Positions 8,687 through 33,635 of a stretch of DNA of 64,000 nucleotides are shown here, one piece after another. The translations under genes and the position numbers were made by a program. The notes under the pieces were generated by a model. The model did not search any database. It had not been told where the DNA came from and saw only the letters and a list, made by a program, of their open reading frames with translations. The first letter of the stretch is position 1. Each line of letters opens with the position of its first letter. The stretch covers positions 18,589-82,588 of the forward strand of contig JBDOIE010000015.1 of the NCBI GenBank assembly GCA_041082245.1, in the 5' to 3' direction. This DNA is from Chloroflexia bacterium. GTDB lineage: Bacteria > Chloroflexota > Chloroflexia > DTKN01.

Positions 8687-10393
8687 ATGCGCAAGGGCTA
8701 CCTGGCTTTCGTACTCCATTCGCATATGCCGTATGTCCGGCAGGCCGGGCGGTGGCCTTTCGGCGAGGAGATGCTCCACGAAGCGATGGCGGAAACCTAC
8801 CTTCCCCTTCTGAACGCGTTCTACGACCTGCGCGCGGATGGTGTGCCCTTTCGGGTCACCGTCGGGATTACACCGATCCTCGGGGAGCAGCTGGCCGATG
8901 CGGAAGTCTTGGACCATTTCGAGACCTTTCTGCTGGGGGAAGTCGAGCTGGCGCACCAGGATGTGGAGCGCTTCCAGAAGGCAGAAGCGTCGGTTCCAGA
9001 TGCTCCGCATTTCCTGTACCTGGCGCGCTTCTATGAGGAGTGGTACCGCAATCTCCTCCAGGCATTCCGTGAGCGGTTCCGGCGGGATCTGATCGGGGCT
9101 TTTCACCTCCTGCAGGACGAGGGGTTCATCGACATTCTGACGAGCGCGGCGACGCACGCCTACTTGCCCCTGATGGAGCGCGATTCGACCATCTACGCGC
9201 AGCTACGCACTGGGGTCGCGAGCTACCTGCGCCATTTTGGCCGTCTTCCGAGAGGCATCTGGTTGCCCGAGTGTGCGTATCGGCCGGGCTTCCTTAAGGT
9301 CGAGGACGGGCGAGAGATCGTGAAACCGGGCCTTGAGGAGTTTCTGGCGGAGCTGAACCTGAGCTACACGTTTGTCGAGACACACGCCATCGAGCGCGGC
9401 CGGCTGACTGGGAAGGCGGTGGGCGATGTGGTGGGGCCGTACGGTGGGGTGCCGAAGCGCAAACTCGTAGTACCGCTCGAAGAAGGCCGGGAGCCGGCCG
9501 AGCGAACCACTTTCCGGCCCTATTACATCCAGGCTTCTTCCGTGGCCGTTTTCGGGCGAGATGCGCGCACGGGCAAGCAGGTGTGGTCCGCATCGGAGGG
9601 TTATCCGGGCGATTTCGTGTATCGGGAGTTTCATCGCAAGGACGATATCTCCGGCTTGCAGTACTGGCGTGTAACCGGAGATCGGGTTGACCTGGGCGAA
9701 AAGGACCTGTACGATCCGTATCACGCGTTCCACCGCGCGCAGGAGCACGCGTCGCATTTTGTGGAGGTGGTGCGGGAGCACCTGCTCGGCTACTGGGCCA
9801 GGAGCGGCCGGCCGGGGATCGTGGTTGCGGCCTACGATACGGAGCTGTTCGGCCATTGGTGGTTCGAGGGCATCAACTGGCTCAAAGAGGTCCTGGTACG
9901 TCTGGCGCGCGATCCGGATATCGAACTGAGCACTGTGGGGGAGTATCTGGAGCAGTTTCCGCCCGAGGAAGCGATCGTGTTGCCGGAGGGGTCGTGGGGC
10001 AAGGGCGGAGACCATTCTACCTGGATGAACCCGGAGACCGAGTGGATGTGGCCCCTCATCCACGACGCAGAACGGCGTATGGAGCAACTGGTGGCTCGCT
10101 TCCCGGATGCCGAGGGCGAGCGTCTGGAAGTCCTGAAGCAGGCCGGGCGCGAACTGCTCCTTCTGGAAAGCAGCGACTGGCCGTTTCTGATCGACACAGG
10201 GCAGGCGGTCGCGTACGCGACGGACCGTTTCCAGGGGCATTTGGCGCGGTTCAACCGCCTTTGCGTACTTGCGGAAAAGCCCTCTCTGGACGCTGCGGAT
10301 CGTGACTACCTTCAGGAGTGCCAGCGTTTGGACAACCCCTTCCTGAACCTGGACTACCGCGTCTTCTCGGCGCGCGAAGGGCGAGCCGGCTAA
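8687..10393 (+). CDS. Glycoside hydrolase family 57 protein, 1,4-alpha-glucan branching-enzyme-like
   Basis: N-terminus (LAFVLHSHMPYVRQAGRWPFGEEMLHEAMAETYLPLL) closely resembles GH57 branching enzymes such as the Thermus/Thermococcus type. GGCAGGAGGGA RBS. Confidence 0.8.
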   Translation: MRKGYLAFVLHSHMPYVRQAGRWPFGEEMLHEAMAETYLPLLNAFYDLRADGVPFRVTVGITPILGEQLADAEVLDHFETFLLGEVELAHQDVERFQKAEASVPDAPHFLYLARFYEEWYRNLLQAFRERFRRDLIGAFHLLQDEGFIDILTSAATHAYLPLMERDSTIYAQLRTGVASYLRHFGRLPRGIWLPECAYRPGFLKVEDGREIVKPGLEEFLAELNLSYTFVETHAIERGRLTGKAVGDVVGPYGGVPKRKLVVPLEEGREPAERTTFRPYYIQASSVAVFGRDARTGKQVWSASEGYPGDFVYREFHRKDDISGLQYWRVTGDRVDLGEKDLYDPYHAFHRAQEHASHFVEVVREHLLGYWARSGRPGIVVAAYDTELFGHWWFEGINWLKEVLVRLARDPDIELSTVGEYLEQFPPEEAIVLPEGSWGKGGDHSTWMNPETEWMWPLIHDAERRMEQLVARFPDAEGERLEVLKQAGRELLLLESSDWPFLIDTGQAVAYATDRFQGHLARFNRLCVLAEKPSLDAADRDYLQECQRLDNPFLNLDYRVFSAREGRAG

Positions 10394-10396
10394 CCG

Positions 10397-12511
10397 ATGG
10401 TAGGCTTGGGCAGTCATCCCGGGCAATCCAGCTGCTGGAAGGCCGGTAGCCGCTGCTTCTGGCCGAACGCCCTTTCGCGGTACCGGGTGTTGCCTCTTGT
10501 GCTGCTAGTGACCGCGATCTTTGTGGTGTGCGCGTACCAGTTCGACCGCATCTACACGGTGGATGCGGGTCGATACGCGGATCGTCCCTTCCTGCGAGGT
10601 TTTCATGATCGGGAGGGAGTCGACGGGCTCGAGCCTTTCCGCTGGACGGGTGCGAGGTCGGAAGTGATTTTCCCGGGGGTAGGGGCGCGGGACCGGTGGC
10701 TGCTGGTGCGGCTGGGCGGGCACGAGTACGCGGGGTTAGCGGACCGGACGGTGCGGATCGCGGTCAATGGCACTGTGATGAGCGAGGTCGTGGTGTCGAA
10801 GGGCTGGCAGGCGTACCGTTTCTGGATTCCGGCCAGCGAGCAACATCTGGGCAGCGTACGGGTTACGCTCGAAACGACGCCGTTTGTGCCAGCGGAGGTC
10901 GCTGGGGGCGAGGATGATCGCCTTGTCGGGGTGAAGGTAAGCCGCGTGGAGCTCGTGCCTATGAGCAATGGATTCTCGGCCGGCTGGCCGGCCCTCGTAC
11001 CGCTCTTGTGGTGCCTGCTCCTTGTGGCAGGGATTTACGCAGGGCTGAGCACCTGGGTCGTTTCTTGGCGAGGGGCTGCCGTGGTTGCCCTGCTTGTGGC
11101 AGCCGCTGTTGCCTGCGCGCTCAGCGTGTACCGGCTTCAGGTGGCGGCCTACCTGCCACGGCTCGTGGCAGGGATGCTGCTGGGCCTGGCGCTCGCCGCA
11201 GCTTCGGGCCGCCTAGCGCGCCTCCTGTACCGGTGGAGTGGCGTGGCCGCATCCGATCGGGACGTACGGTGGCTTCAGGCGATCTTTCTGGTTGGCTTCT
11301 GGCTGAAGGCCTGGGGCCTGCTCTACCCCAACAGTGTCGCGATCGACCTGAAGTGGCATCTCTGGCAGGCACAGCGAATCGTGGATGGAGAGCTCGCCAC
11401 GATCTACAAACCCGGGGCGCTCGCGTTCTGGATCGCGCCGGACCAGTGGGGCGGCAGCCTGGAAGCGGCCGTGCCCTATTCACCGTTCTACCACATCACT
11501 GCCGCAGCGTTCTTCTTCCTTCCATGGCCCCCGTACGTCACGGCGAACCTTCTGAGCGTTTTCCTGGATACAAGCCGCGGCTTCTTGCTCTACGGGCTCG
11601 CGAGAAAACTGGGTATGGGGAACCGCGCAGGTATCTTTGCGGCGCTGCTGTACGGCCTTTTCCCGACGACGTTCCTCCTCCATTCCTGGGGAAACGTGCC
11701 GACGACGACCGGGCTCTGGTGGGCGATTGCCGCTACGTGGTACCTTGTGGCGGGGTGGGAAAAGATGAAGCGCTGGACCGTCTGGTCCGGGCTTGTCGTC
11801 TTGCTCCTGGGCACAATGCTCTATTATAGCGTGATCGCGGCGTTCATCGTCGTCTTTTTCGTGCTCTTGCTCCTTGGGCTCTCGTGGAGCCGTAGCCTCG
11901 AAGTACGCCCGCTCGGGAGGGTCGGGCTTGCCCTGGTGGTTGCTGTAGGGCTGGCGATGGCGATCTACTACTGGCAGTACGTTCCCCCGCTCTTGCTGCT
12001 CTTGCGCTCCGGGAGACTGGGAGCAGGCCTGGGAAGCACGGCCCAGTCCGTTCCGGTGACCGTGTTCCTCTGGCGGACACTCGTGAGGATCGCTTCGCTG
12101 CGGTACGGGCTCCTCTGGCCGGCAGTGCTGGCCTTCGTGGGGCTCTGGGCGGGACGCGGCTGCTTGCGGAATCCCCTGACGCGCTGGCTGACATGGTCCT
12201 GGTTCCTGACAGGGCTGCTGTTCCTGGCAGTCGATTACCGGATCCAGCTCGTCGATAAGCATATCTTCTTCCTGATGCCGCTTCTCGCGCTGTGGGGCGG
12301 GGTCGCACTCGATTGGTTGCTGGGCAGCCGGTGCTGGGGGAAAGCAATAGTGTGGGCGACCGCTCTAGCGCTTGCGGTGGCCTCACTGCATACCTGGCTG
12401 TACCGGCTTTCGAACGTACAGCAAGAATGGACCGAAGCAGATATCCGGATTGTCGGCGAACGGCTGGCCCCGCTGATGGTCGCCGGCATCCAGCGGCTCT
12501 TGGGGCTGTAG
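10397..12511 (+). CDS. Large polytopic membrane protein (paralog A). N-terminal TM anchor plus a roughly 130-aa extracytoplasmic module, then 12 or more TM helices. GT-C-like?
   Basis: ATG lies 3 nt after the GH57 stop. Hydrophobicity profile. The N-terminal module shares conserved blocks with ORF 15882..18170 (FRWTGARSEVIFPGVG / YRWTRAEASVRLPEVG; LVGVKVSRVELVP / LGVAVERVELRAV). Confidence 0.5.
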   Translation: MVGLGSHPGQSSCWKAGSRCFWPNALSRYRVLPLVLLVTAIFVVCAYQFDRIYTVDAGRYADRPFLRGFHDREGVDGLEPFRWTGARSEVIFPGVGARDRWLLVRLGGHEYAGLADRTVRIAVNGTVMSEVVVSKGWQAYRFWIPASEQHLGSVRVTLETTPFVPAEVAGGEDDRLVGVKVSRVELVPMSNGFSAGWPALVPLLWCLLLVAGIYAGLSTWVVSWRGAAVVALLVAAAVACALSVYRLQVAAYLPRLVAGMLLGLALAAASGRLARLLYRWSGVAASDRDVRWLQAIFLVGFWLKAWGLLYPNSVAIDLKWHLWQAQRIVDGELATIYKPGALAFWIAPDQWGGSLEAAVPYSPFYHITAAAFFFLPWPPYVTANLLSVFLDTSRGFLLYGLARKLGMGNRAGIFAALLYGLFPTTFLLHSWGNVPTTTGLWWAIAATWYLVAGWEKMKRWTVWSGLVVLLLGTMLYYSVIAAFIVVFFVLLLLGLSWSRSLEVRPLGRVGLALVVAVGLAMAIYYWQYVPPLLLLLRSGRLGAGLGSTAQSVPVTVFLWRTLVRIASLRYGLLWPAVLAFVGLWAGRGCLRNPLTRWLTWSWFLTGLLFLAVDYRIQLVDKHIFFLMPLLALWGGVALDWLLGSRCWGKAIVWATALALAVASLHTWLYRLSNVQQEWTEADIRIVGERLAPLMVAGIQRLLGL

Positions 12512-12513
12512 CG

Positions 12514-14010
12514 ATGCGCGTGTGGCCGAGAAGCGCGGTAGACCGGCTGACTAGCTTCTGGAACAGGCTCGAACGCCACGCGGGTCTCCTGTTGGCGCTG
12601 ATGCTCGTGGGCTATGGGTTGCTGTTCAGCGCAGCCTCGATCTACAAACTGTACACCTTGCGGCAGGGTTTCGACCTTGCGGGCAACGAGCAGACGATCT
12701 GGAACACCATGCACGGCCGGTTCTTCCGGACCTCGGTGTTCGCGATGATGGATTATGACTTCGATGACGGACCGGTGCTCCTGGAGATCCCGCTCGCGGC
12801 CCTGTACGCGCTCTGTCCGTCCACGTCTACGCTGCTCGTACTGCAAACGCTGGCGATCGTTCTGGGGGCGTTGCCGCTCTACGGTCTGGTCCGCGACCTG
12901 TGGGGCCGGCGGGTGCCAGGGTTGATCGCAGCAGCGCTCTATCTGCTGCACCCGACGGTCCAGCACATCAACCTCTACGAGTTCCAGTACCGCTCTTTTT
13001 CGATGGCCTTTGCGCTCGCTGCCTTCTACTTCTTCGAACGCCGTCGCTGGGGTTGGTGGGCGCTTTTTCTCCTGCTCGCGATGGCGACCAAGACCGAGTC
13101 CGCGCTTTTTGCGGTCGCCTTCGGAGTGTACGCTTTGCTTCGTAAACGTCGGTGGCCGTACGTGGTCCCGCCGATCGTCGTGGGCGCTGCTTGGTTCTAC
13201 ATCGCCCTGTTTGTCGTTGTCCCGCACTTTACACACGGGAATGGCAGTTTCGTCGCCGGCATCTACAGCTACGGCTACCTGGGCAATACGCTGGGCGAAG
13301 TGGTCCGTACCTTTGTGACGCGGCCGGTGTTCGTGCTTTCCGTACTCTTTCAGCCGCTCAAGGTACGGTTCCTCCTCTCCTTCCTGTTCCTTTCGGCGTT
13401 CTTGCCGATCCTTGCGCCGGGGCCGCTTCTGCCGGCTGCTCCGATCTTCCTGCTGAACCTGCTTTCCCCAAACCCGGTACAGTTCAGCCTCTACTACCAG
13501 TACCAGGGGCTGACGCTGCCCGCAGTGCTCGTATCTGCGTGGTATGGACTGGATCGCCTGCTTCGCTTCGGCCGGCGGCGGCTGGGGTGGGAGGGGGAAC
13601 GCGCTCGTTCGATTGCCCTCTGCTTGCTGCTCGTGTTCGGCCTGTTGAACTGCGTGCTGTGGAAAAACGCCCTGTGGAGTACGGTACGCAACCGGGATAC
13701 CGCGCAGCGGATTGCCGATGCGCGCGCGGTGCTGGCCCAGGTACCGCCCGATGCTCCGGTTGCGGCCAGCAGTTTTCTCGCTCCCTTCCTGGCACAGCGC
13801 GAAGGCCTCTACTTCTTTCCCGGCAACCGGTCCTATCCGGAGGCGTACATCGCCCGCGCCGAGTACATCGTGACGGACACCTCCGATCTTCTCCCACCGC
13901 GCGGCCGCGAACTGCTGGCTGCCTACCGCCAGAGCGGGGAGTGGGAAGTGGTCGTGCAGCGGGGCGACTTCTTACTACTGCGGCGGGTGCGCCCGTCGCC
14001 GCAGCCGTGA
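12514..14010 (+). CDS. DUF2079-like integral membrane protein (GT-C-type glycosyltransferase-like)
   Basis: ATG at 12514 lies 2 nt after the previous stop. Multi-TM protein with an acidic first-loop motif (YDFDDGPV). Family recalled from memory. Confidence 0.45.
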   Translation: MRVWPRSAVDRLTSFWNRLERHAGLLLALMLVGYGLLFSAASIYKLYTLRQGFDLAGNEQTIWNTMHGRFFRTSVFAMMDYDFDDGPVLLEIPLAALYALCPSTSTLLVLQTLAIVLGALPLYGLVRDLWGRRVPGLIAAALYLLHPTVQHINLYEFQYRSFSMAFALAAFYFFERRRWGWWALFLLLAMATKTESALFAVAFGVYALLRKRRWPYVVPPIVVGAAWFYIALFVVVPHFTHGNGSFVAGIYSYGYLGNTLGEVVRTFVTRPVFVLSVLFQPLKVRFLLSFLFLSAFLPILAPGPLLPAAPIFLLNLLSPNPVQFSLYYQYQGLTLPAVLVSAWYGLDRLLRFGRRRLGWEGERARSIALCLLLVFGLLNCVLWKNALWSTVRNRDTAQRIADARAVLAQVPPDAPVAASSFLAPFLAQREGLYFFPGNRSYPEAYIARAEYIVTDTSDLLPPRGRELLAAYRQSGEWEVVVQRGDFLLLRRVRPSPQP

Positions 14011-14044
14011 CGCGGGCGCTTTTGGATTCGGAGCGAGGCGCAAC

Positions 14045-15736
14045 GTGGACGAAACCAACCACACGCCGCTTTCACGTCAGGTTGCGGGAGCGATGTTCTG
14101 GAACGTGATGCTCTTCCCGCTCAAGTTTGTGGTCGGCGTGGCCGTGGGCATCGTCGTGCCGAACCTCCTGGGGCTGGAGCGCTACGGTCTTTACATTCTG
14201 CTTGTTTCTTTGGCAAGTACCCTGGGAAGCTATGCGGACCTGGGGATGGAGCGCGCTTTGCCACGCTACATTCCCGAGGTCGCGCACCATTTCGGACGCG
14301 CGGGACTGCGCCGCTTCCTGCGCGAAGTCGTCGTGGTCAAACTGGGCTTGCTGCTCCTGCTCCTCCTGGGCCTGCAGCTGTTCTCCGGTCCGCTCCAGGG
14401 GTATGTGCGGGGCAACGAATTGCGCAAGATCGCCTCGATCGACCTTCAGCTGCAGCAGGAAAGCGATCCGGTGCGACGCGAACGCCTGCTTGCTGAGCGG
14501 AGTGCGCACGAGCAGCTGATCGCCCGGTTGGAGCGCGAGGGCCGGCTGTACCTCTGGACAATCGGCGCAATGCTCCTTCTGGGGGCGGTTTTCGATGTCT
14601 TGACGCGCCTCCTCGTGGCCTACTTCAGGCAACGGGCCACAAACGCGATCGATGTGGGGTTGGCAGTGCTGCAACCGCTGCTCATCATCGTGTTGGTCCT
14701 GGCCGGCTGGGACATGAAAGGGATCCTGGTTGCCCTGGTCGTCACACCGATCGTCGGGGTGGCGCTTGCCGCCTGGCGTGCACGGCAGGCGATGGTGGCG
14801 CTGCCGGAAGGCACCGCAACGGCAGATCGGTGGTGGCATCGCGTCTGGAGACGTTTCCTTGCCTTCTCGGCGATCTCCTACCTGATCAACCTCAGCACAT
14901 GGCTGTACGACCTCGCCTTCCTGAGCCTGGTCACGGCGGCATACCTGGGCACAGCGGACGTAGCGGCCCTGGGGGTGGCAAGCAAGTTTGTGGGCCTCTT
15001 TCTGACCTACCTGATGGTACCGTTGAGCGGGATCCAGGTACCGCTCTTCGCCCATCTGTACGCGCGGAAAGGCCTGCAGGAGCTCCAGCAGGCGTTCGAG
15101 GTCCTGAGCCAGTTCCTGCTCCTCCTGCTTGTGCCCACGGGCGTCGGACTTGCGCTGCTGTCCCCGTCTCTGGTTCCGCTGCTCTACCCCGGGTTTCCCC
15201 GGAGCACGGGCGTACTCGTGATCATCCTCATCGCGGCGATGTTCCTGGAAACGCTGATCGGGACACCCCAGAACATCCTGCAGGTCTACGAGCGCTACGG
15301 GATCGTGGTCCTCGGCCGGCTCCTTGCTCTGGTCGTGGTACCGCTGCTTTACCTATGGGTGCCGCGGTACGGGCTGATCGGCGCAGTCGGGGCGGCGAGT
15401 GTGGCGCGCGTGGCTTCGCGGGCGGTAACTTTCTGCTACAGCCTGCGGGCTTTCCCGCTGCACTTTCCCTGGCGGTTTGCCGCGCGGGTGAGTTGTGCCA
15501 CGGCGACCATGCTGGCCGTCCTCTACCCCCTGACCCTATGGTTGAGGATCACCCAGATCGGGAGCGGCTGGGGAGGGCGCCTCGCCGTGCTGGCGAAGGA
15601 CCTGGGCCTCACAGCGCTCGGAGGTGTAGTGTTCTTCGGCGTGCTCCGCCTGCTCGGCGGTCTCGACCCGGCGTTGCGGAATCGTCTGAACGAACTGCGT
15701 TTCCCGCTGAAAGAGCGGATCCTGCGTTTCCTCTAG
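14045..15736 (+). CDS. MOP/Wzx-like polysaccharide (lipid-linked oligosaccharide) flippase
   Basis: About 14 TM helices with the typical polysaccharide-biosynthesis-protein architecture. Start is a GTG at 14045 with a GGAG/GAGG RBS; an alternative ATG lies at 14093. Confidence 0.55.
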   Translation: MDETNHTPLSRQVAGAMFWNVMLFPLKFVVGVAVGIVVPNLLGLERYGLYILLVSLASTLGSYADLGMERALPRYIPEVAHHFGRAGLRRFLREVVVVKLGLLLLLLLGLQLFSGPLQGYVRGNELRKIASIDLQLQQESDPVRRERLLAERSAHEQLIARLEREGRLYLWTIGAMLLLGAVFDVLTRLLVAYFRQRATNAIDVGLAVLQPLLIIVLVLAGWDMKGILVALVVTPIVGVALAAWRARQAMVALPEGTATADRWWHRVWRRFLAFSAISYLINLSTWLYDLAFLSLVTAAYLGTADVAALGVASKFVGLFLTYLMVPLSGIQVPLFAHLYARKGLQELQQAFEVLSQFLLLLLVPTGVGLALLSPSLVPLLYPGFPRSTGVLVIILIAAMFLETLIGTPQNILQVYERYGIVVLGRLLALVVVPLLYLWVPRYGLIGAVGAASVARVASRAVTFCYSLRAFPLHFPWRFAARVSCATATMLAVLYPLTLWLRITQIGSGWGGRLAVLAKDLGLTALGGVVFFGVLRLLGGLDPALRNRLNELRFPLKERILRFL

Positions 15737-15808
15737 GAGGGCGCTGGCGTTCGCGTACAACCCTGCTGCGCTCGGCTGTTCCGGGGAAACTTCTGGCATA
15801 GAGCGCGC

Positions 15809-15837
15809 TTGCCCGCGGCGTGTGCGGGTGGTATAAT
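15809..15837 (+). promoter_or_regulatory. Sigma70-like promoter: TTGCCC, 17 bp, TATAAT (TG-extended), upstream of the paralog B membrane gene
   Basis: Read directly from the sequence. The -10 hexamer is 44 nt upstream of the ATG at 15882. Confidence 0.5.
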
Positions 15838-15881
15838 CCGGCGCTGATTGTGCACCCGATGGGAAAAGCGAAGGTCGTGCG

Positions 15882-18170
15882 ATGCGGGAAAGGCTCACGC
15901 GCACAGAGGCTGGCTCGATTGCCCGCGCACGCATACTGTGGCCGGTCCTCCTCCTTGTGGCGGGCGTAGCGGGTCTCCTTGTGGCGTTCCAGATGCGTCC
16001 GCCCGTTGTCGTACGGGTGGGGGAAGCGGCATCCGAGCCTCTGCTCAAGAATTTCCACGCTCCCGAAGCGACGGGGGGCCGCGCGTACCGCTGGACGCGC
16101 GCCGAAGCGAGCGTTCGGTTGCCCGAGGTGGGCCTGCCCGCGCCCTGGGAACTCGTGCTGTACCTGTCCGGACAGCCTGATCGAACCATCCCGCTGTTTC
16201 TCGCCGTGGACGGGGACGAGGTGGGGCGGCTGGACATCGCTTCCAGGAGCGGTGTCTATTCCCTCGTTCTGTCCGGTAAGTCTTCTCCCTTCGCTCATTC
16301 CGTCGAATTGGAGCTGCGTACGTCGGCGTTCTCTCCCCCCAACGACCCCCGGGAGCTCGGAGTGGCCGTGGAGCGGGTCGAACTGCGGGCGGTCGGCCAC
16401 GGGCCCCGGGGGATTGCGCTGGGGCCGTCCCTGCTGTTCCTGGGACTCTCGTTGCTGTCCTACGCGGGCTTCGCGCGCCTGAGCGGGAGCCGTCTGGGCG
16501 GACTTGTCGCTGGGGGGATGGTACTGGGGTTTGCCTGCGTGGGGGTGCAGAGGTACTGGCCCACACAGCAATTCCGCCCGTTCCCGTGGGCCGCGGTGAT
16601 CGGCTCGGTCTCTCTCGCAGGCCTCGTGTACGGACCCGCGGTGCGTCGCGATCTTGCGGCGATGTCCCGTACAATGGCGGCCGGCCGTCTCGCGCTCCCC
16701 CGGGCAAGGACGATAGCCACCTCCCGGGGATGGCTCTGGGCAATGGCCGCGGGTGCGTGCCTGGTCCTTGGCCTTCACCTTGCGGCCCCGTGGCTGCCTG
16801 TGGAACAGGGTCCGTACGAGAACCTGTCCTGGGGAGTCCGTTTCTACGGGCGCCTTCCAGTCGGGTGGCGCTGGGGCGGGGTACTCGCGGCGGCCGCGGT
16901 CTGTCTGGGGTCCGGGCCGTTGGCCCGTGCCCTGCTCGGGCTCTCTTTCCGGACGCGCCATTACCGGGTACGGAGTGCTCTCGTGGCAGCGGCGCTGGCC
17001 GCTTTGCTTGCAATAGCCTGTTTCTGGCTGCTGCGTACCCGCTGCTTCTATGGCGACTGGGAAGAGATCGTGGAGGACATTGCGCTGGGAGCGCTCTGGC
17101 GGGAACGGAGTCCGGTCGATTTCCTGCTCCGGGCTGGCTTGGGGCGGGCGCTAGCGGCGCAATGGCCCGCCTGGCTGCGGGTAGCTCCGCCCCTCTCGCG
17201 ATGCCTTGTGCAGCCGGTGGCGGCAACGGACGCTTTTCCGGCTCTGCGCGGTGCGCTTGGCGTACTCAGCTGCATTGTTGGCGGGGTGTTCGTCGCGGGA
17301 GCCTCAGGGCTCGGCGCGGCGCTGTTCCCACAGCGGCTGGAGCGTTCGTTCTTTGTGCTCCTCCTGGTCGCACAGGGGACGGCGTTGCTCTTTGCAGGCT
17401 ACATCGAGATGTACACGATGGTTACGGCGGCGCTGGCCGTGTTTCTGCTCTCCGGGGTCCTCGCGTTACAGCGCCGTATCGGGTATGTGTGGTCCGTGTG
17501 GGCTTTCGCGCTGGCCGTGGTGACGCACCTGCAGGCGGTGTACCTGGCGCCCGCGCTGCTCTATGTGGTGTGGAATGCGGTTGCAGAAGGCCGCCGAGCA
17601 CGTATCCGGGCGGTGCTCGGTGCGGTGCTTGCGGGACTGCTGCTGCTTGCCCTTGTATCGGGAATCTTCCTCTTGCTCGGCTATGACCCAGGGAGGTTGA
17701 CCTGGGCATCCCGCGGGCTCGGGGGCGTGGACGGGGTTTTCCTCAAGCACCTCCTGCGGCCAGCCCCAGAAGCGCACGAACCGTACCCGATCCTGTCCTG
17801 GGAACACTTGCGCGCTGTACTGAACCAGCAGCTACTGGCCGCGCCGCTTTCGCTGTTTGCCCTGGTCGCAACGGTAGCCGCTTTCGGGCGGCGGTGGCGA
17901 GCGCTCCTTGCGGACCGGATCCTGGTCTTTCTGCTGCTCGCTACGGTGCCTGCCCTTCTCTTCACCTGGGTATACAACCCGGACCTGGGGGCGCGCCAGG
18001 ACTGGGACCTCCTGGCGCCACCGTTCGTGCTCCTGACGGCGACCGCGGCCTACCTGATCCTTGGGCGCGTGCGGCCGGCCGGGGCGCGCTTGAGCGGGGC
18101 GATCGTCTGGCTATCCGTTTCCCTCCTGCATACCCTTTCCTGGCTCTGGCTCAACCACCTTGGGCTGTAG
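15882..18170 (+). CDS. Large polytopic membrane protein (paralog B) sharing the N-terminal extracytoplasmic module of paralog A
   Basis: ATG at 15882. A TM anchor and a conserved module are followed by 14 or more TM helices. See paralog A for the shared motifs. Confidence 0.5.
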   Translation: MRERLTRTEAGSIARARILWPVLLLVAGVAGLLVAFQMRPPVVVRVGEAASEPLLKNFHAPEATGGRAYRWTRAEASVRLPEVGLPAPWELVLYLSGQPDRTIPLFLAVDGDEVGRLDIASRSGVYSLVLSGKSSPFAHSVELELRTSAFSPPNDPRELGVAVERVELRAVGHGPRGIALGPSLLFLGLSLLSYAGFARLSGSRLGGLVAGGMVLGFACVGVQRYWPTQQFRPFPWAAVIGSVSLAGLVYGPAVRRDLAAMSRTMAAGRLALPRARTIATSRGWLWAMAAGACLVLGLHLAAPWLPVEQGPYENLSWGVRFYGRLPVGWRWGGVLAAAAVCLGSGPLARALLGLSFRTRHYRVRSALVAAALAALLAIACFWLLRTRCFYGDWEEIVEDIALGALWRERSPVDFLLRAGLGRALAAQWPAWLRVAPPLSRCLVQPVAATDAFPALRGALGVLSCIVGGVFVAGASGLGAALFPQRLERSFFVLLLVAQGTALLFAGYIEMYTMVTAALAVFLLSGVLALQRRIGYVWSVWAFALAVVTHLQAVYLAPALLYVVWNAVAEGRRARIRAVLGAVLAGLLLLALVSGIFLLLGYDPGRLTWASRGLGGVDGVFLKHLLRPAPEAHEPYPILSWEHLRAVLNQQLLAAPLSLFALVATVAAFGRRWRALLADRILVFLLLATVPALLFTWVYNPDLGARQDWDLLAPPFVLLTATAAYLILGRVRPAGARLSGAIVWLSVSLLHTLSWLWLNHLGL

Positions 18171-18317
18171 CAGAGGGGCTGTGGACCCGGTTCCCTTGGA
18201 CAGACGTTTTTCGAGTACGGCGCTTCTGCACTCCGGACGTGAACCGTCCCTCACAATTGGCCGGTGCGTCTCCCGGCTGTCCGTCCCGCTGCTCGGCCGG
18301 TCCGGCCCATCCGCGCT

Positions 18318-18572
18318 CTAACGTGTCGAGAAGCGCCGCACCGGGATGTCGGCCACGAGTCGGTCCTGGCGCTCGGTGCGCGTGATTTTGACATCGATGT
18401 GCTCGGCATCGATCTCCACGTACTTGGAGATCACGGCGATGATCTCGCTCTTCAGCGTTTCCAGAAGCTGCGGCGAAAAGCCGCGGTCGTGCACAAGCAC
18501 GAGCTGCAGACGCTCTTTCGCGATCGCGGAGCTCTTTGGGCGTCGCTGGAACATGCTGCGTACCAGATCCAC
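18318..18572 (-). CDS. minE: Cell division topological specificity factor MinE
   Basis: 84 aa, GTG start. Typical MinE N-terminus (FQRRPKSSAIAKERLQLVLVHDR). Confidence 0.85.
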   Translation of the reverse strand: MDLVRSMFQRRPKSSAIAKERLQLVLVHDRGFSPQLLETLKSEIIAVISKYVEIDAEHIDVKITRTERQDRLVADIPVRRFSTR

Positions 18573-18588
18573 GGCTCGTCCTCCCTGT

Positions 18589-19401
18589 TCACTGACCCCT
18601 GGTGCCGTCGTTGCGGCGGCCCATCCAGGTGGCGATCCGCCCCCAGAACGAGGGCTCCTCGGGGACCGTTAGCGGCACTTCCTCGCCCAGGAGCCGTCGG
18701 GCAATCTGAAGGAACGCCTGGCCGGCCGCGGAACGGTTTTCCAGCACCACCGGCACCCCACGGTTCGTGGACGTCAGGATGTGGGCATCTTCAGGAACAA
18801 TCCCGATGATCGGGATCGCCAGGATCTCGCGGACGTCTTCTACACTCAGCATCTCTCCCCGACGCACCATGCTGACGTTCAGGCGGTTGATGATCAGGCG
18901 GGGTTCCCCTTTCTCTTCGGCCTCGACCAGCCCGATGATCCGATCGGCATCGCGGACGGCCGCAACCTCTGGAGTGGTCACGATCAGCACCTCGTCCGCT
19001 CCTGCAACGGCGTTCTTGAAACCCTGCTCGATGCCCGCAGGGCTGTCGATGAGGATGAAATCGAATTCCCCGCGCAGCTGGCGGCACACCTCGATCATGT
19101 CCGTGGGGCTCACAGCGGTCTTGTCGCGCGTCTGCGCCGCTGGAATCAGGTAGAGATCGGGCAGACGTTTGTCTTTGATCATCGCCTGGCGGAGCCTGCA
19201 ACGACCCTCCACGACGTCCACCAGGTCGTACACGATGCGGTTCTCGAGCCCCATCACGATATCCAGGTTCCGCAGGCCGATGTCCACATCGATGGCCACC
19301 ACGCGCTGTCCCAGCATCGCCAGGGCAGTGCTCAAGTTCGCGGTCGTAGTGGTCTTGCCCACCCCTCCCTTGCCGGAGGTGATCGTGATCACTTGGGCCA
19401 T
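18589..19401 (-). CDS. minD: Septum site-determining ATPase MinD
   Basis: MAQVITITSGKGGVGKTTTTANL deviant Walker A. ATG at 19401 with a GGAGG RBS. The ORF track extends further upstream, but that stretch has no RBS. Confidence 0.9.
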   Translation of the reverse strand: MAQVITITSGKGGVGKTTTTANLSTALAMLGQRVVAIDVDIGLRNLDIVMGLENRIVYDLVDVVEGRCRLRQAMIKDKRLPDLYLIPAAQTRDKTAVSPTDMIEVCRQLRGEFDFILIDSPAGIEQGFKNAVAGADEVLIVTTPEVAAVRDADRIIGLVEAEEKGEPRLIINRLNVSMVRRGEMLSVEDVREILAIPIIGIVPEDAHILTSTNRGVPVVLENRSAAGQAFLQIARRLLGEEVPLTVPEEPSFWGRIATWMGRRNDGTRGQ

Positions 19402-19439
19402 ACCTGCCTCCTTCCAGTGCTCAGGCGGACCAGCCCTCC

Positions 19440-20129
19440 TCAGGGCCGCCGGAAGAGATCCCACGGCTCCACGACGATACGGCCGCCCGCGATATACGCA
19501 ACCTCGGGACCCGCGGACGGTACGCCTTCCTCGGGGGGGCGAGCGGCCAGGTTGGCGATTCGGAGCTGCGTCGGCGAAAGGTCGAGCGCACACACGATGG
19601 CTCGCTCGTCTCCGATGGCCCCGGCATGGACGACGCCACGCAGCCGTCCCCAGACCACCACGTCGCCCCCGGCCAGGACTTCGGCGCCCGGATTCACGTC
19701 CCCCAGCACCGTGATCGGCCCATGGTGCCGTACGGCCTGTCCCGAGCGGACCGTGCGCGTGACGAACAGCGCGTCGGAGATCGCGAGCGGACGGGTGCCG
19801 CTTTCCGCGCGTGTGGGGAGCGGCGCGGTCGCGGAAGGGACCGCCCGGACGCCGGCATCCCGAAGGGCGCCGCGCGTCTGACGGTTCAGGGTGCCAACCG
19901 CACGGAGATCCACGCCCCATCGCTGCAGGATCGTGGTCAGCTGGCCCAACTCCTCCGTGCTGAGGGCACGGTTCCCTACATCCACCATCAGTTCGGCGCC
20001 CCGGAAAAAGCTTTCCCCGCGCCGCAGCTGCTCTTCCAGAGCGGCGAGCAACGCTTCCAGCGGCGCTTCCTCGTCCAGGAACAGGCGCAGGCCCGTCCGG
20101 TCACCTTTCAGGCGAACCAGTTCCTCCAT
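19440..20129 (-). CDS. minC: Septum site-determining protein MinC
   Basis: MinC-like N-terminus (MEELVRLKGDRTGLRLFLD) and C-terminal beta-helix repeats. ATG at 20129 with a GAGGGAA RBS; an alternative GTG lies at 20141. Confidence 0.75.
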   Translation of the reverse strand: MEELVRLKGDRTGLRLFLDEEAPLEALLAALEEQLRRGESFFRGAELMVDVGNRALSTEELGQLTTILQRWGVDLRAVGTLNRQTRGALRDAGVRAVPSATAPLPTRAESGTRPLAISDALFVTRTVRSGQAVRHHGPITVLGDVNPGAEVLAGGDVVVWGRLRGVVHAGAIGDERAIVCALDLSPTQLRIANLAARPPEEGVPSAGPEVAYIAGGRIVVEPWDLFRRP

Positions 20130-22272
20130 CGGTTCCCTCACTTGCCGATGCTCCTGACCGTGTGAAGTAGTACTCGATGATATCGGTTACCGCCGGCAGG
20201 GCGATCCGGCTTCCTTGTCCACCGCCCTCCACGACCACCGCGACGGCGATCTGCGGGTCTTCGTAGGGAGCAAAACCGACGAACCACGCGTGGGCCTGCC
20301 GCACGCCCGGCCTCAGGAAAGGCCCGAACTCCGCCGACCCCGTCTTGCCGGCGATCGCGACGCTCGCGTGCGTGCGCGCGTAATCGGTGGCCGATTCGGT
20401 GACTACCCGCCGCATTCCCTGCCGCACTACCGCCAGATAGTCGGGGTCGACCGGCAACTGGTGAATCACCTGCGGGCGGAACTCCTGTACGACCTGTCCC
20501 TGGGCGTCCTGGACGCGCAGCAGTAGCTGTGGGCGGTACAGGGTTCCGCCGTTGGCGATGGCGGCCACGGCGTTGACGAGCTGCAGCGGGGTGACCAGGA
20601 TATTGCCCTGGCCGATGGCCATGTTGTACAGGTCGCCCTGGACCCACGGTTCCCCGAGCGTCTCCTCTTTCCATTCGGGCGTCGGGATCAGTCCCGATGC
20701 CTCACCGGGCAATCCCAGCCCCGTCGGTTCGCCGAATCCGAAGGCGTGAGCGTACCGTACGAACCTCTCGATCCCCAGACCGTCCTCGTACTGCTTGTCG
20801 GGTGTACCACCGGCGATGGTGAAGAAGAAGACGTTACAGGAGTTCCGGATCGCCACATCCACTGTCTGCCAGCCGTGTCCGCTGCGCAGCCAGCAGGGGA
20901 AAACCTGTGGAGGAAGGTTGGGGTCGTAGCGGTTCGGCACGAGCAACGCTCCGCCGTCGAAGATGCGTGTCTTCGGAGTGATCACCTTTTCCTGGAGCGC
21001 AGCCGAAGCGACCACCAGTTTGAAGGTAGACCCGGGGGGATAGCTCCCGGAGATGGCCCGGTTTAGAAGCGGGTTGCGAGGATCATCCAGCAGGCGCCGG
21101 AACTCTTCCTGCGTGATGCCGCGCGCAAAGAGGTTGTTGTCGTAGGACGGCAAGCTGACCATCGCGAGCACCTGCCCGCTCCGCACGTCCAGGACGACTG
21201 CAACCCCGCTCGTCACCGGGCGGTAGTCCCGCGGCCGCTCCCGCTCTGCCTGGCGGATGTACTGCTCCAGGATCGCCGTGGCTCTTTCCTGGAGGTCCGT
21301 ATCCAGAGTCAGTACGACGTCATAGCCGGGGCGCGGATCCTTGGTCCAGAAAGGAGCGCCGACCGGGCGGCCGCTTGCGTCCACCTGGATTTCCTGCAGC
21401 CCGAGTTCCCCGCGAAGGATCGCCTCGAAGGCACGCTCTGCCCCGAGCTTGCCGATGCGATCGTTCTCGAGGTACCGGACAGGCTGGCCGTTCTTGGGGT
21501 CAGGGTTCTCTGCTGCGAGTTCCTCCGCGCTGATCCTCCCAACGTATCCCACGACGTGTGCCGTCAGGGCACCCGTCGGATAGCGTCTCGATGGCTCGGG
21601 CTGGACATAGATCCCGGGAAGGTCGAGCCGGTGTTCCTCGATGACAAGTGCGACATCGCGCGGCACGTTTTCCGCCAGGGGGACAGGCAGGTAGACGGGG
21701 ACGTGGCTATCGTACAAAACTTGTTCGAGGGACGTGGTGTAAGTCAGGCCGGCCGAGGACGCGATCCGTGTCCGAAGCCACGCCGCATCCGATTCCGTCA
21801 GACGCACGGTTGCGCGGAAGGGTCCCTCGAGGTCCAGAAGCGCTTCCAGATCTCCTCCATAGCCCAGTTCGAGACGCTCGCCCAACCATGCATAGAGCGT
21901 TTCCAGGGCGGTTGGATCGATCTTGCGGGGGTCTACCTCCACTGTCCCTTCGCACCGGAGCAGCGCACATAGCCGGTCGAACAACCGTGTGCGTTCCGCT
22001 TCATCCTCGGGCAAACTATCCACTGTGGCCATGATGGTGAAGCTGGGGACGTTCTCGGCAAGTACCCGCCCCGCGCGGTCAAAGATCCTCCCCCGAATGG
22101 GCAACATGGCCACCGTTCGACGGCGGTTTCCTTCGGCCGCTTCCCGGTAGCGCGCGCCCTCCACGATCTGCAAGTACCAGAGCCGCGTGCCGAGGAGTGC
22201 GAATGCAGCCACCAACAGCAGTCGCAGAAGGATGAAACGCCAGGAAGGCCTGTGTCTCCGCCGTCCGTTCAC
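20101..22272 (-). CDS. mrdA: Penicillin-binding protein 2 (peptidoglycan D,D-transpeptidase, MrdA-type)
   Basis: Contains the transpeptidase signature GSTFK; KTG is partly supported (AIAGKTGSAEF), while SxN was not located. N-terminal TM segment present. Start refined to the GTG at 22272 with a GGGGGAGGAAAG RBS just after the mreD stop; the longer ORF would overlap mreD by 290 nt. Confidence 0.8.
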   Translation of the reverse strand: MNGRRRHRPSWRFILLRLLLVAAFALLGTRLWYLQIVEGARYREAAEGNRRRTVAMLPIRGRIFDRAGRVLAENVPSFTIMATVDSLPEDEAERTRLFDRLCALLRCEGTVEVDPRKIDPTALETLYAWLGERLELGYGGDLEALLDLEGPFRATVRLTESDAAWLRTRIASSAGLTYTTSLEQVLYDSHVPVYLPVPLAENVPRDVALVIEEHRLDLPGIYVQPEPSRRYPTGALTAHVVGYVGRISAEELAAENPDPKNGQPVRYLENDRIGKLGAERAFEAILRGELGLQEIQVDASGRPVGAPFWTKDPRPGYDVVLTLDTDLQERATAILEQYIRQAERERPRDYRPVTSGVAVVLDVRSGQVLAMVSLPSYDNNLFARGITQEEFRRLLDDPRNPLLNRAISGSYPPGSTFKLVVASAALQEKVITPKTRIFDGGALLVPNRYDPNLPPQVFPCWLRSGHGWQTVDVAIRNSCNVFFFTIAGGTPDKQYEDGLGIERFVRYAHAFGFGEPTGLGLPGEASGLIPTPEWKEETLGEPWVQGDLYNMAIGQGNILVTPLQLVNAVAAIANGGTLYRPQLLLRVQDAQGQVVQEFRPQVIHQLPVDPDYLAVVRQGMRRVVTESATDYARTHASVAIAGKTGSAEFGPFLRPGVRQAHAWFVGFAPYEDPQIAVAVVVEGGGQGSRIALPAVTDIIEYYFTRSGASASEGTDGGTGSPER

Positions 22273-22292
22273 GTCGTTCTTTCCTCCCCCGA

Positions 22293-22778
22293 CTACCCGA
22301 TCCGCATCCGGGGCCGGATGCGGCGATCCAACCATTCGCTCAACGCATAGACCAGGGGCATCAAGGCTCCATGGACAAGCGCCAGGGGCAGGACGACGCG
22401 CACCAGGACCTCCGAGTGCCATGGGACACCTGTCAGCACCACCAACAGCAGGTGATAGCCAATTGTCCCAAGGAACGCCGCACCCGCCGGGAAGAGCAGG
22501 TTGCCCCGGTGTAAAGGCGCGACCATCGCTCCCACAGCCGCAACCACAAGGAGGAGCGCCAGCGTGTGGCTGCCCAGCCATCCCGGAGAGAGAAGGTCGA
22601 GGGCCATCCCCCCTACGAAGGCACCGATCGCTCCCTCGCGCAGGCCGCGGACAACGGTCCAGGCGACCACGCCCAGGAAAAGTAGGTCCGGCCTGGCCCC
22701 GAGCAACGGTATTTTGGGCATCGCGGCGGACTGCACGAACGCCAGCAGAACCAGAACGACCAGCAACCCAATGCGCAC
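22293..22778 (-). CDS. mreD: Rod shape-determining protein MreD
   Basis: 161-aa polytopic membrane protein, located between mreC and the PBP2 gene. Confidence 0.7.
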   Translation of the reverse strand: MRIGLLVVLVLLAFVQSAAMPKIPLLGARPDLLFLGVVAWTVVRGLREGAIGAFVGGMALDLLSPGWLGSHTLALLLVVAAVGAMVAPLHRGNLLFPAGAAFLGTIGYHLLLVVLTGVPWHSEVLVRVVLPLALVHGALMPLVYALSEWLDRRIRPRMRIG

Positions 22779-22782
22779 GAGG

Positions 22783-23616: not shown

Positions 23617-23688
23617 AGTTGACTCCCGTCTGGGTCCGACCCACGTTTCGGGGGAACCCGGCGCGCCCCGACGGACGCGGCCGGAGGC

Positions 23689-24762: not shown

Positions 24763-24803
24763 CTTCTTGCTCCTTGTCCCAGGACTCAAGTCATTGGCAT
24801 TAT

Positions 24804-28946: not shown

Positions 28947-29243
28947 GTGCCGCAGACCCTGCGCGTCGAGATTGTAGAGGTGCAAGGCAATTGCCCCGTC
29001 TACCGGGGCGGCGAGTCTTTCTACATCGAGGCCGGGTATCGGCTGAAAGCACCGGAGCCCGTTTGCCTCCACGGAATCGTCAGCATTCTTCCGTACTACG
29101 TTGCACTGGCAAGAGGCATTCCCGCGCGGGACCTGGGCCTTGCGGGCCCTGACGGGGCCGCCTACGTGCAATGCCTCGACCCTCACGCCCTTACCGGCGG
29201 GGGCACCGTGACTTTTCGGCTGACGACCGAGGCCGCACCGTAG
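28947..29243 (+). CDS. Small conserved hypothetical protein (98 aa, 3 Cys)
   Basis: GTG start preceded by AAAGGAGG with a 5-nt spacer. Balanced amino-acid composition. Overlaps the 3' end of the convergent 29183..31636 gene by 61 nt. Confidence 0.45.
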   Translation: MPQTLRVEIVEVQGNCPVYRGGESFYIEAGYRLKAPEPVCLHGIVSILPYYVALARGIPARDLGLAGPDGAAYVQCLDPHALTGGGTVTFRLTTEAAP

Positions 29244-31636: not shown

Positions 31637-31670
31637 TGGACCCCGGAAGCGCACGGAGCGAACAGTGGGC

Positions 31671-33595: not shown

Positions 33596-33635
33596 CTCCG
33601 CTTTTCGAGGGGCGGTTCCTCCTGTGAGAACGCCC

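Follow-up and report, generated by a model that had tools for sequence, protein, structure and literature searches.

A candidate Chloroflexia gene cluster for outer-face assembly of an envelope polysaccharide, encoding two membrane proteins with a shared N-terminal module

Introduction

The construction of the Chloroflexia cell envelope is a long-running question. Chloroflexia lack LPS genes and BamA, and cryo-tomography has revealed envelope layers of uncharacterised chemistry (PMC7332563, PMC3368417). The same sources cite a complex of peptidoglycan and polysaccharide in Herpetosiphon and, in Oscillochloris, a glucan associated with the wall (PMC3368417, PMC7332563). Within the 64,000-nucleotide stretch of DNA analysed here (the window), two large membrane proteins with similar N-termini, designated A and B, are encoded on either side of a DUF2079-family protein and a flippase candidate, raising the question of whether these genes build such a polymer. 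An earlier note on this DNA, which suggested a phyletic profile across Thermomicrobia/Chloroflexota, had proposed a lipid-carrier-dependent glycan assembly locus; the host class is Chloroflexia instead. The four gene products likely (probability about 0.7) carry out the outer-face half of lipid-carrier-dependent synthesis of a cell-envelope polysaccharide typical of the filamentous Chloroflexia, and the cluster supplies concrete candidate genes for the polymer.

Gene organization of the locus

The cluster consists of four neighbouring genes oriented on the positive strand, encoding in order protein A (10397..12511, 704 aa), a GT-C-type membrane protein of the DUF2079 family (12514..14010, 498 aa), a divergent MOP-superfamily (Wzx/MurJ-like) flippase candidate (14045..15736, 563 aa) and protein B (15882..18170, 762 aa). 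The reading frames given earlier for A and B match those found here exactly. Each of these two proteins combines a TM anchor and a predicted CBM-like module with a polytopic region, which is a GT-C-fold membrane glycosyltransferase domain in A and a domain with a probable GT-C fold in B. According to the gene calls, the DUF2079 gene starts 2 nt past the stop of A. The promoter previously suggested for B corresponds to a sigma-70-type promoter-like site (15809..15837, positive strand; TTGCCC-17-TATAAT with an extended -10 TG) 45 nt upstream of the gene; it is a consensus match only, with 10 of 12 positions matching and 0 sites expected in shuffles.

Directly upstream of A on the same strand lies a GH57 alpha-glucan branching-enzyme-like gene (8687..10393) with matches to the Pfam models Glyco_hydro_57 (E 5e-34) and BE_C (E 8.5e-30). 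Its stop codon is 3 nt ahead of the ATG of A, and the two genes are probably co-transcribed, though a functional tie to the cluster is only putative. The GH57 neighbour was considered as a sign of a wall alpha-glucan, a reading that was not adopted because the adjacency is confined to the clade closest to the window (loci L007-L014 and the P0006 contig).

At 31.7-35.1 kb, 16 kb away, the window encodes an initiating Bac_transf enzyme (a phosphoglycosyl transferase of WbaP/PglC type) together with two sugar epimerase/dehydratases, tied to the cluster by proximity only. The cluster of the window encodes no cytoplasmic glycosyltransferase, and the subset of window ORFs scanned against Pfam yielded no GT2 polyprenyl-phosphate sugar synthase. 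A recognisable gene of Wzy, Wzz or WaaL type was likewise not found. Two further window ORFs, 29183..31804 on the negative strand and 35515..37023 on the positive strand, were considered as additional module, A-type or B-type proteins and rejected, having no match to the local HMMs.

The shared N-terminal module

Proteins A and B each begin with a TM anchor followed by a module of approximately 140 aa that they have in common. In A, the signal-anchor helix (10490..10534) spans aa 32-46 in the AF2 model, coincides with a hydropathy peak at aa 31-49 and is preceded by basic residues, placing the N-terminus inside; the module that follows (10553..10960, aa 53-188) is hydrophilic and beta-rich and is modelled with a pLDDT of ~90. 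The N-terminus of B has the same layout, with a basic stretch, one hydrophobic helix at aa ~18-36 and a hydrophilic, beta-rich module (15999..16397, aa ~40-172).

BLASTP aligns A with B at 30% identity over 174 aa (E 2e-14), and the four conserved blocks described earlier are visible in this alignment, in which FRWTGARSEVIFPGVG pairs with YRWTRAEASVRLPEVG and DDRLVGVKVSRVEL with DPRELGVAVERVEL. Reciprocal profile searches bear out the shared anchor and module: a module profile built from the A family only matches aa 12-172 of B (E 2.9e-30), and one built from B-type proteins only, leaving out the B of the window, matches aa 34-204 of A (E 6.7e-26). When 24 diverse modules were aligned, only an RW pair and a D-x-R-x-LG motif were invariant or nearly so, represented in A by R82-W83 and D173-x-R175-x-x-G178. 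The two proteins do not align outside the module, and profile comparison of their membrane domains gave a non-significant hhalign probability of 7.8%. The proposal that A and B are paralogues thus stands for the N-terminal module and is rejected for the whole length, since the membrane domains, lacking detectable homology, belong to two different families.

In the models of both proteins the module has a CBM6/35/36-like fold, and it is therefore predicted to be a beta-sandwich (jelly-roll) of this type. None of the 24 modules matched Pfam at E<=0.05, and the module profile had no match below E 0.89 among PDB sequences. In relatives the module is joined to four or more kinds of membrane domain, among them A-type, B-type, GT39/PMT_2 (P0037) and some that are unassigned, and its placement may be N-terminal, C-terminal or tandem. 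The module could be expressed and serve as a diagnostic probe.

The membrane domain of protein A

The polytopic domain of A (10982..12511, aa 196-704) comprises ~16 helices in the AF2 model, made up of three extra helices and a 13-helix core. The 12-14 TM helices estimated in the earlier note therefore fit B, for which hydropathy gives ~14, and fall slightly short for A. The core is confidently modelled as a GT-C fold, its nearest structural likeness being to STT3/PglB/AglB. Besides D391 and W431-G432, the invariant residues of this domain include D317, which occupies the first outer loop between helix 287-308 and a short loop helix, 316-329, and is conserved without exception across 27 family members. 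With a modelled GT-C core and a conserved acidic residue in the predicted first extracytoplasmic loop, A shows two of the features that mark the GT-C superfamily, and it would be expected to draw on a polyprenyl-phosphate-linked sugar donor at the outer face.

Direct searches of A against Pfam, NCBIfam and PDB sequences returned no match, and the A-family profile had no meaningful match among PDB sequences. Profile-profile comparison of the TM1-TM4 region with a local DUF2079 alignment gave an hhalign probability of 88% (E 3e-6), and comparison of the A membrane domain with a local PMT_2 alignment gave 11.8%. Having no Pfam match, A falls by sequence outside the DUF2079 family and is only distantly related to it.

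The resemblance to STT3/PglB/AglB suggests an alternative in which the locus serves protein glycosylation, with A modifying envelope or S-layer proteins, either alone or together with B, whose family is usually TPR-bearing like the TMTC/PMT-type protein O-mannosyltransferases. Such a role is considered improbable. The enzymes of the STT3/PglB/AglB group (GT66) are distinguished by a C-terminal periplasmic domain and a WWDYG motif; A ends at aa 704 in TM helices with no such domain, and WWD is absent from its sequence. The STT3, PMT and PMT_2 Pfam models do not match A or its relatives at E<=10, the STT3 search having covered 27 A-family members. Protein A is therefore ruled out as a true oligosaccharyltransferase. 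The predicted CBM-like domain appended to both A and B would suggest a glycan acceptor over a peptide, and the B protein of the window carries no TPR.

The membrane domain of protein B

The membrane domain of B (16719..18170, aa 280-762) belongs to a different, unannotated family, with invariant residues G391-D392, E509/Y511, H549, H642, W708-D709 and N758. The G391-D392 pair is invariant in alignments of 5 and 16 members and directly follows the TM helix at 364-384, making D392 a conserved acidic residue after an early TM helix, where it may face the outside as part of outer loop 1. AF2 models B poorly (pLDDT 52) because word-indexed homologue searches supplied only 5-7 relatives; an exhaustive search recovered 3,881 relatives (~3,900 clusters) of the membrane-domain family, most of which, unlike B itself, are fused to TPR. 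A GT-C fold is probable, as suggested by this low-confidence model and by weak, sub-threshold EpsG matches in 3 of 16 B-family members (best E 3.4e-5). Direct searches of B against Pfam, NCBIfam and PDB sequences gave no match, the membrane-domain profile had no meaningful match among PDB sequences, and profile-profile comparisons with the local DUF2079 and PMT_2 alignments detected nothing (PMT_2 hhalign 4%). The PMT and PMT_2 models matched neither B nor its relatives at E<=10.

The module, A and B thus match no Pfam, NCBIfam or PDB sequence family, in agreement with the earlier failure to assign the module, and A and B align significantly, through the module, with no link to a characterised family. 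The description of the proteins as undescribed consequently holds at the family level. The A membrane domain, the B membrane-domain family and the module lie outside current domain libraries and could join them as GT-C and CBM-like families.

The DUF2079 protein and the flippase candidate

The identification of a DUF2079-like GT-C-type protein between A and B is firmly supported by a match to PF09852 (E 3.2e-62; 211.6 bits against a gathering cutoff of 28.2). This protein also has weak Pfam matches to Alg6_Alg8 (4.6e-4) and EpsG (E 0.014; 15 bits against a cutoff of 30.1), and a weak match to the NCBIfam entry 'cell surface glycopolymer formation protein'. The flippase candidate itself has no direct match in Pfam (E<=0.1) or NCBIfam, and its family profile has none in the PDB. 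Among 19 full-length orthologues, four match Polysacc_synt_3 (best 2e-10), one matches Polysacc_synt (2e-6) and one matches MurJ (7e-5); those with family matches share 31-41% identity with the ORF of the window, and the Herpetosiphon aurantiacus orthologue scores 31.4 bits to Polysacc_synt_3 against a cutoff of 23. Through the orthologues, the Wzx-like assignment made earlier is plausible for the ORF of the window. The Wzy_C, O-antigen polymerase and EpsG profiles had no match above threshold, EpsG being sub-threshold only, in the DUF2079 ORF and the B-family members noted above. A literature search found no publication on DUF2079 and none that deals with the Chloroflexia GT-C proteins or module proteins reported here.

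Conservation across Chloroflexia

Genes for A, the DUF2079 protein and the flippase occur together in most of 69 Chloroflexia loci, sampled as one genome per species and including Roseiflexus, Herpetosiphon and Chloroploca. Because the loci were scanned for with a single peptide pattern, the apparent restriction to Chloroflexia sets only a minimum for how widely they occur. In H. aurantiacus (about CP000875 5,449,262-5,460,976) the order is A, methyltransferase, GT4, DUF2079, GT4, methyltransferase, flippase and module protein. The Roseiflexus cluster has a GT4 followed by A, DUF2079 and a PMT_2+TPR protein and, further along, a methyltransferase, the flippase and a GT4. As in Roseiflexus, the position of the third GT-C is held in related clusters by PMT_2+TPR proteins. 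The candidate cluster, which encodes a flippase along with three proteins of predicted GT-C fold, is conserved across Roseiflexus, Herpetosiphon, Chloroploca and uncultured Chloroflexia. A separate module protein is encoded at a locus with PMT_2, DUF2079, GT2, GT4, DegT and epimerase genes.

This distribution bears on the possibility that A and B are mere neighbours, that is, independent membrane proteins such as transporters or sensors that carry a generic beta-sandwich and share no pathway. Consistent with this, B is limited to the closest relatives (L002, L003 and L007), the cluster is flanked by housekeeping genes (FBA, GH57, minCDE, PBP2 and mreBCD), and the products of all four genes are without established function. 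However, the trio of A, DUF2079 and flippase is kept together in different orders of Chloroflexia at identities as low as 28-35%, and the clusters also hold GT4s, methyltransferases and further GT-Cs, so that a chance grouping is very unlikely. The wall polysaccharides of Chloroflexus and Herpetosiphon contain O-methyl sugars, which would fit the methyltransferases of the clusters; this is not used as evidence here.

Proposed pathway

The modelled folds, motif positions, module homology, and gene order and its conservation can be combined into a four-step pathway. On the cytoplasmic side of the membrane, enzymes encoded elsewhere in the genome would first build an oligosaccharide on a polyprenyl-(pyro)phosphate carrier. 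Candidates among them are the WbaP/PglC-type transferase and the two epimerase/dehydratases 16 kb from the cluster; orthologous clusters have GT4s and SAM methyltransferases of their own. The lipid-linked unit would then be carried across the membrane by the MOP-type flippase. At the outer face, A, the DUF2079 protein and B may polymerise, branch or transfer the glycan from lipid-phosphate-linked donors, using the conserved Asp of the first outer loop (D317 in A, D392 in B), with the labour presumably split among the three GT-Cs. Finally, the N-terminal beta-sandwich, tethered by its own TM helix beside each catalytic domain, would hold the acceptor or nascent chain as a carbohydrate-binding module, by analogy with the CBMs of EmbC, AftD and GT136. 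Donor and acceptor identity, sugar binding by the module and a wall-associated polysaccharide as the product are what we infer from this scheme.

The general proposal of extracytoplasmic, lipid-carrier-dependent glycan assembly is thus supported by the GT-C-fold proteins and the MOP-type flippase, with orthologous loci adding GT4s, methyltransferases and GT-Cs. Its more specific form, an arabinan or mannan type of polymer, is not, as nothing points to either sugar polymer. The mechanism originally envisaged was stepwise elongation, in which the GT-Cs extend the chain one sugar at a time from polyprenyl-monophosphate donors, as in the mycobacterial Emb/Aft, Gtr and GT136 systems, and the large flippase moves the monosaccharide donors. 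This remains a tentative reading, with odds well below even. The donor flippases GtrA and ArnE/F are small. So is that of GT136, a 4-TM protein (PMC11127046) and not a ~14-TM MOP protein with similarity to Polysacc_synt_3 and MurJ. No GT2 polyprenyl-phosphate sugar synthase is present in the annotated Herpetosiphon or Roseiflexus clusters, and the Bac_transf initiating enzyme together with the GT4s indicates a pre-assembled lipid-PP-linked unit. The stepwise and pre-assembled-unit models are compatible with each other.

A bolder extension of the pre-assembled-unit pathway, regarded as a long shot, is that the R-W / D-x-R-x-LG beta-sandwich constitutes a new synthase-dedicated CBM family defining a Chloroflexia-wide machine for a non-LPS outer or wall polysaccharide. 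The OST-like A would here act as an en-bloc 'glycan ligase' that takes the lipid-PP-linked polymer, once flipped, and attaches it to peptidoglycan or a different acceptor in the envelope, with the modules of A and B handing on the same chain. If true, a GT-C enzyme would occupy a role usually filled by LCP or WaaL-type ligases.

Comparison with known systems

Carbohydrate-binding modules on GT-C enzymes are already well established, with EmbC, AftD and GT136 as examples (PMC3044687, PMC11127046). The mechanism is familiar from elsewhere and only the protein families are unnamed, so that the value of the cluster lies in annotation and in a testable envelope question, not in a new principle. Mycobacterial EmbA/B/C and AftD are arabinofuranosyltransferases of GT-C type with lectin-like CBMs. 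In contrast, the module described here is N-terminal on its own TM helix, and in relatives sometimes tandem or C-terminal, the partner is a putative MOP-type flippase and the hosts are Chloroflexia; sequence searches link A, B and the module neither to the Emb/Aft families nor to any model in Pfam.

The three-component side-chain glycosylation system of Citrobacter youngae (ORF12/14/15) includes a GT136 GT-C enzyme whose CBM binds the polysaccharide substrate (PMC11127046). It resembles the present cluster in encoding a CBM-bearing GT-C for extracytoplasmic glycosylation alongside a dedicated flippase (PMC11127046), the CBM role here being predicted from models. The GT136 locus differs in its single GT-C gene, as opposed to three genes for predicted GT-C-fold proteins here, in the C-terminal position of its CBM, in its small 4-TM flippase compared with the ~560-aa MOP-type candidate, and in encoding a lipid-P-sugar synthase, none of which was found here.

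Wzx/Wzy pathways have counterparts at this locus in the candidate MOP flippase, related through its orthologues to Polysacc_synt_3 and MurJ, in a Bac_transf enzyme (encoded in the window) and in the weak EpsG similarity of the DUF2079 protein and the B family; however, work at the outer face would here fall to GT-C-fold proteins that bear CBM-like modules, and the EpsG signals fall far under Pfam thresholds. A link to the PMT_2/GT39-GT83 enzymes (ArnT, PMT, TMTC) is provided by the GT39-annotated protein P0037, to which the N-terminal module is also fused, but the DUF2079, PMT and PMT_2 models detect neither A nor B at any threshold tried. The likeness of the module to CBM6, CBM35 and CBM36 is one of fold only, its sequence matching neither a CBM family nor a chain in the PDB. 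The module has a signature of its own, R-W ... D-x-R-x-L-G, unlike CBM6/35/36, and whereas those domains are found on glycoside hydrolases, it is carried by putative membrane synthases.

Gene Organization of the Cluster

On the simplest reading, which draws on fold, the position of motifs and the neighbouring genes, the four genes between 10397 and 18170 encode the outer-face half of a pathway that would build an envelope polysaccharide on a lipid carrier. All four lie on the positive strand and encode protein A (10397..12511, 704 aa), a DUF2079 protein (12514..14010, the start being taken from gene calls), a flippase-like protein (14045..15736) and protein B (15882..18170, 762 aa). An earlier note had described A and B as giant membrane proteins with a DUF2079-like protein and a Wzx-like flippase between them; both ORFs are present where it placed them, and the N-terminal design it gave is borne out. 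Each protein opens with a basic stretch and one hydrophobic helix; a hydrophilic region of approximately 140 residues comes next, ahead of a long series of hydrophobic helices. The stop codon of an upstream GH57 alpha-glucan branching-enzyme-like gene (8687..10393) lies 3 nt from the start of A, the stop of A lies 2 nt from the DUF2079 start, and 34 nt separate the DUF2079 and flippase-like ORFs. The gap ahead of B is 145 nt and contains the promoter-like sequence noticed earlier, TTGCCC-17-TATAAT (15809..15837, positive strand), which also carries a TG extension and is a consensus match only.

As had been proposed, the ORF at 12514..14010 clearly belongs to DUF2079 (E 3e-62), and it has weak similarity to Alg6/Alg8 and EpsG. 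The flippase-like ORF itself has no direct family match, and its assignment comes from full-length orthologues with 31-81% identity to it: four match Polysacc_synt_3 (best 2e-10), the Herpetosiphon aurantiacus copy exceeding the Pfam gathering threshold for this family, one matches Polysacc_synt and another MurJ. Because of these matches, the protein is a candidate divergent flippase of the MOP superfamily (Wzx/MurJ-type). A highly charged, helix-prone insert of about 45 residues, RGNELRKIASIDLQLQQESDPVRRERLLAERSAHEQLIARLEREGR, is located between its hydrophobic segments at aa ~118-165.

The Shared N-Terminal Module

The first approximately 174 residues of A and B align by BLASTP (30% identity, E 2e-14) and display the four conserved blocks described earlier, whereas the remainder aligns as noise only, so that the proposed paralogy is confined to the N-terminal module; comparison of A and B profiles outside the module was likewise negative. 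A profile built from the A family only matches B at aa 12-172 (E 2.9e-30), and one built from B-type proteins excluding the B of the window matches A at aa 34-204 (E 6.7e-26). Because these independent profiles each match the other protein, the similarity, as judged from sequence, is neither chance nor compositional.

In the AlphaFold models of both proteins the module is a beta-sandwich whose nearest solved relatives are carbohydrate-binding modules (CBMs), including CBM36 and CBM22, and the positive-inside charge distribution would place it outside the membrane. Profile searches returned no sequence match in Pfam families or PDB chains, in keeping with the earlier failure to place it in any family; the module is of CBM-type fold, yet a member of no CBM sequence family. 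Across 24 diverse copies, near-invariance is limited to an R-W pair close to the first strand and to D-x-R-x-L-G within the last one.

The module is mobile, since its copy number, terminus and attached membrane domain vary among proteins. Proteins A of the window's clade and of Herpetosiphon carry one copy, and the Roseiflexus and Chloroflexaceae orthologues carry two in tandem at the N-terminus (loci L015-L070). In these loci, other membrane proteins of ~665-735 aa, encoded in the same clusters as the A orthologues, carry it at the C-terminus; examples of tandem or C-terminal modules are found at L016 9359..11845, L015 15799..17796 and L039 15823..18024. An N-terminal module is also found on B-type domains, on a protein annotated as GT39/PMT_2 (P0037), and on further, unassigned membrane-domain types, such as H. 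aurantiacus L025 19403..21610.

Membrane Domains of A and B

A word-indexed search of a 5.8-billion-protein database identified 31 relatives of A, none with a Pfam domain, and those with names are from Chloroflexia MAGs; A itself, its family profile included, has no sequence match in Pfam, NCBIfam or PDB. The AlphaFold model (27-sequence alignment; pLDDT 87.7, pTM 0.88) comprises a TM helix (aa 32-46) and an all-beta domain (aa 53-188), followed by three more helices and a 13-helix core. In GT-C enzymes, the catalytic acidic residue is located in the first outer loop and a late outer loop is mobile. D317 of A, which follows helix 287-308 directly and lies in the first outer loop, is invariant in the family, as are D391 and W431-G432, and the low model confidence at aa 538-553 fits a mobile loop. 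The TM1-TM4 region has distant profile similarity to DUF2079 (hhalign 88%, E 3e-6). By its predicted fold, A is a GT-C protein outside every named family, fitting neither the oligosaccharyltransferase (OST) nor the PMT definition; its likeness to OSTs is limited to the core fold, since their C-terminal periplasmic domain and WWDYG motif are absent. This missing domain, along with an appended domain that is CBM-like and not TPR, makes protein glycosylation a less likely function for the cluster than polysaccharide assembly.

For B, the word index returned only 5-7 relatives. Searched exhaustively with HMMER, 1.84 billion cluster representatives yielded 3,881 matches at E<=1e-3, of which 2,423 reached E<=1e-10, and almost all of them are confined to aa ~285-760. 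No Pfam or NCBIfam model covers the membrane part and the proteins are annotated at source as 'hypothetical', so these matches place B, on sequence grounds, in a large unannotated family. Members typically have an N-terminal membrane domain, followed by C-terminal TPRs in the longer ones tested; B is atypical in bearing the N-terminal module in place of TPRs, as do about ten of the best 150 matches. Family invariants include G391-D392 directly after a TM helix, E509/Y511, H549, H642, W708-D709 and N758. The membrane domain at aa 280-762 (16719..18167) shares invariant GD, GY-x-E-x-Y, H, H and WD motifs with P0040-P0187, its numbered relatives. Because profile comparisons with PDB sequences, A, DUF2079 and PMT_2 were all negative, B is only a probable GT-C protein, its fold coming from a weak model. 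This family would itself be a candidate for a new GT-C/TPR family.

Conservation and Gene Neighbourhood

With one genome scanned for each species, 69 loci encode relatives of A, essentially all labelled Chloroflexia; this restriction is a lower bound on distribution, as only one peptide pattern was searched for. The loci occur in Roseiflexus, Herpetosiphon (including the complete genome of H. aurantiacus DSM 785), Chloroploca, Chloroflexaceae and uncultured lineages, and most that are sufficiently long encode DUF2079 and flippase proteins within 10 kb of A. In H. aurantiacus, A is followed by a methyltransferase, GT4, DUF2079, GT4, methyltransferase, flippase and a second module-bearing membrane protein; in Roseiflexus, a GT4 gene precedes A, DUF2079, a PMT_2+TPR protein (found in 27 loci), two unknowns, a methyltransferase, flippase and GT4. 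Another module protein, P0038, neighbours PMT_2, DUF2079, GT2, GT4, DegT aminotransferases and an epimerase. The families are unnamed and the cluster is conserved and apparently lineage-typical; our literature search found no description of A, B, the module or the cluster proteins.

A B-type domain beside A is found only in the window's closest relatives, in the order ParB-FBA-GH57-A-DUF2079-flippase-B, then minE-minD-minC-PBP2-mreD-mreC-mreB on the opposite strand. Synteny with the related locus L002 (proteins 80-95% identical) places minE, minD, minC, a PBP2-type transpeptidase (20101..22581), mreD, mreC and mreB at 18170..24800 on the negative strand, directly downstream, and therefore the glycan cluster of this clade abuts genes for cell shape and division. 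The ORF called mechanically at 18589..19920 (443 aa) over-extends MinD, which has 269 aa in the orthologue. Adjacency of GH57 and A is kept across the window's clade (L007-L014, and the P0006 contig with a sulfatase-family gene lying between the two) and not in Roseiflexus or Herpetosiphon. A branched alpha-glucan is reported in the Oscillochloris trichoides wall, as cited in PMC7332563; the adjacency analysis did not show a functional link between the GH57 gene and the cluster.

Proposed Pathway

In the window, no enzymes for the cytoplasmic steps are encoded inside the cluster; a WbaP/PglC-type phosphoglycosyl transferase and two sugar epimerase/dehydratases are encoded ~16 kb downstream. 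The candidate MOP flippase would export a pre-assembled lipid-pyrophosphate-linked unit, an option favoured because orthologous clusters contain GT4s and methyltransferases, the window encodes this initiating transferase, and the GT136 system, which works from a monosaccharide donor, relies on a small 4-TM donor flippase (PMC11127046). Polymerisation, branching or attachment of the glycan would then fall to the proteins assigned a GT-C fold (A, DUF2079 and, probably, B), and the tethered CBM-like modules may keep the acceptor chain in place, a role demonstrated for EmbC, AftD and GT136 (PMC3044687; PMC11127046). Stepwise elongation from polyprenyl-P-sugars, the arabinan/mannan analogy drawn earlier, is a live alternative and is compatible with export of a pre-assembled unit. 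Chloroflexia are described as lacking LPS and BamA and having envelope layers of unresolved chemistry, with a peptidoglycan-polysaccharide complex cited (PMC7332563; PMC3368417), making a wall-associated polysaccharide the obvious candidate product. The cluster looks functionally similar to known GT-C plus CBM systems, in which the working principle is established, and the mechanism would not surprise a specialist; the cluster offers testable candidate genes for the question of the Chloroflexia envelope.

A second glycan-related cluster at 29183..37023 encodes, on the negative strand, the phosphoglycosyl transferase (33636..35105; Bac_transf and CoA_binding_3), the two NAD-dependent sugar epimerase/dehydratases (31671..32633 and 32630..33595) and a polytopic protein of 873 aa whose central domain is soluble (29183..31804), with a divergently transcribed 502-aa polytopic protein on the positive strand (35515..37023). 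Neither polytopic protein matches Pfam or the HMMs of the module or the A and B membrane domains. By proximity only, it could be the source of the lipid-linked primer on which A, DUF2079, the flippase and B would act. Elsewhere, the window encodes a 984-aa membrane protein of the conserved, functionally uncharacterised UPF0182 family (642..3599, negative strand; E 6.5e-285), a 1,085-aa AAA_16-TPR-BTAD regulator-like ORF (53320..56577) and a secreted-type protein of 1,112 aa (56429..59767) that combines subtilase S8, CarboxypepD_reg, Kelch and PKD domains.
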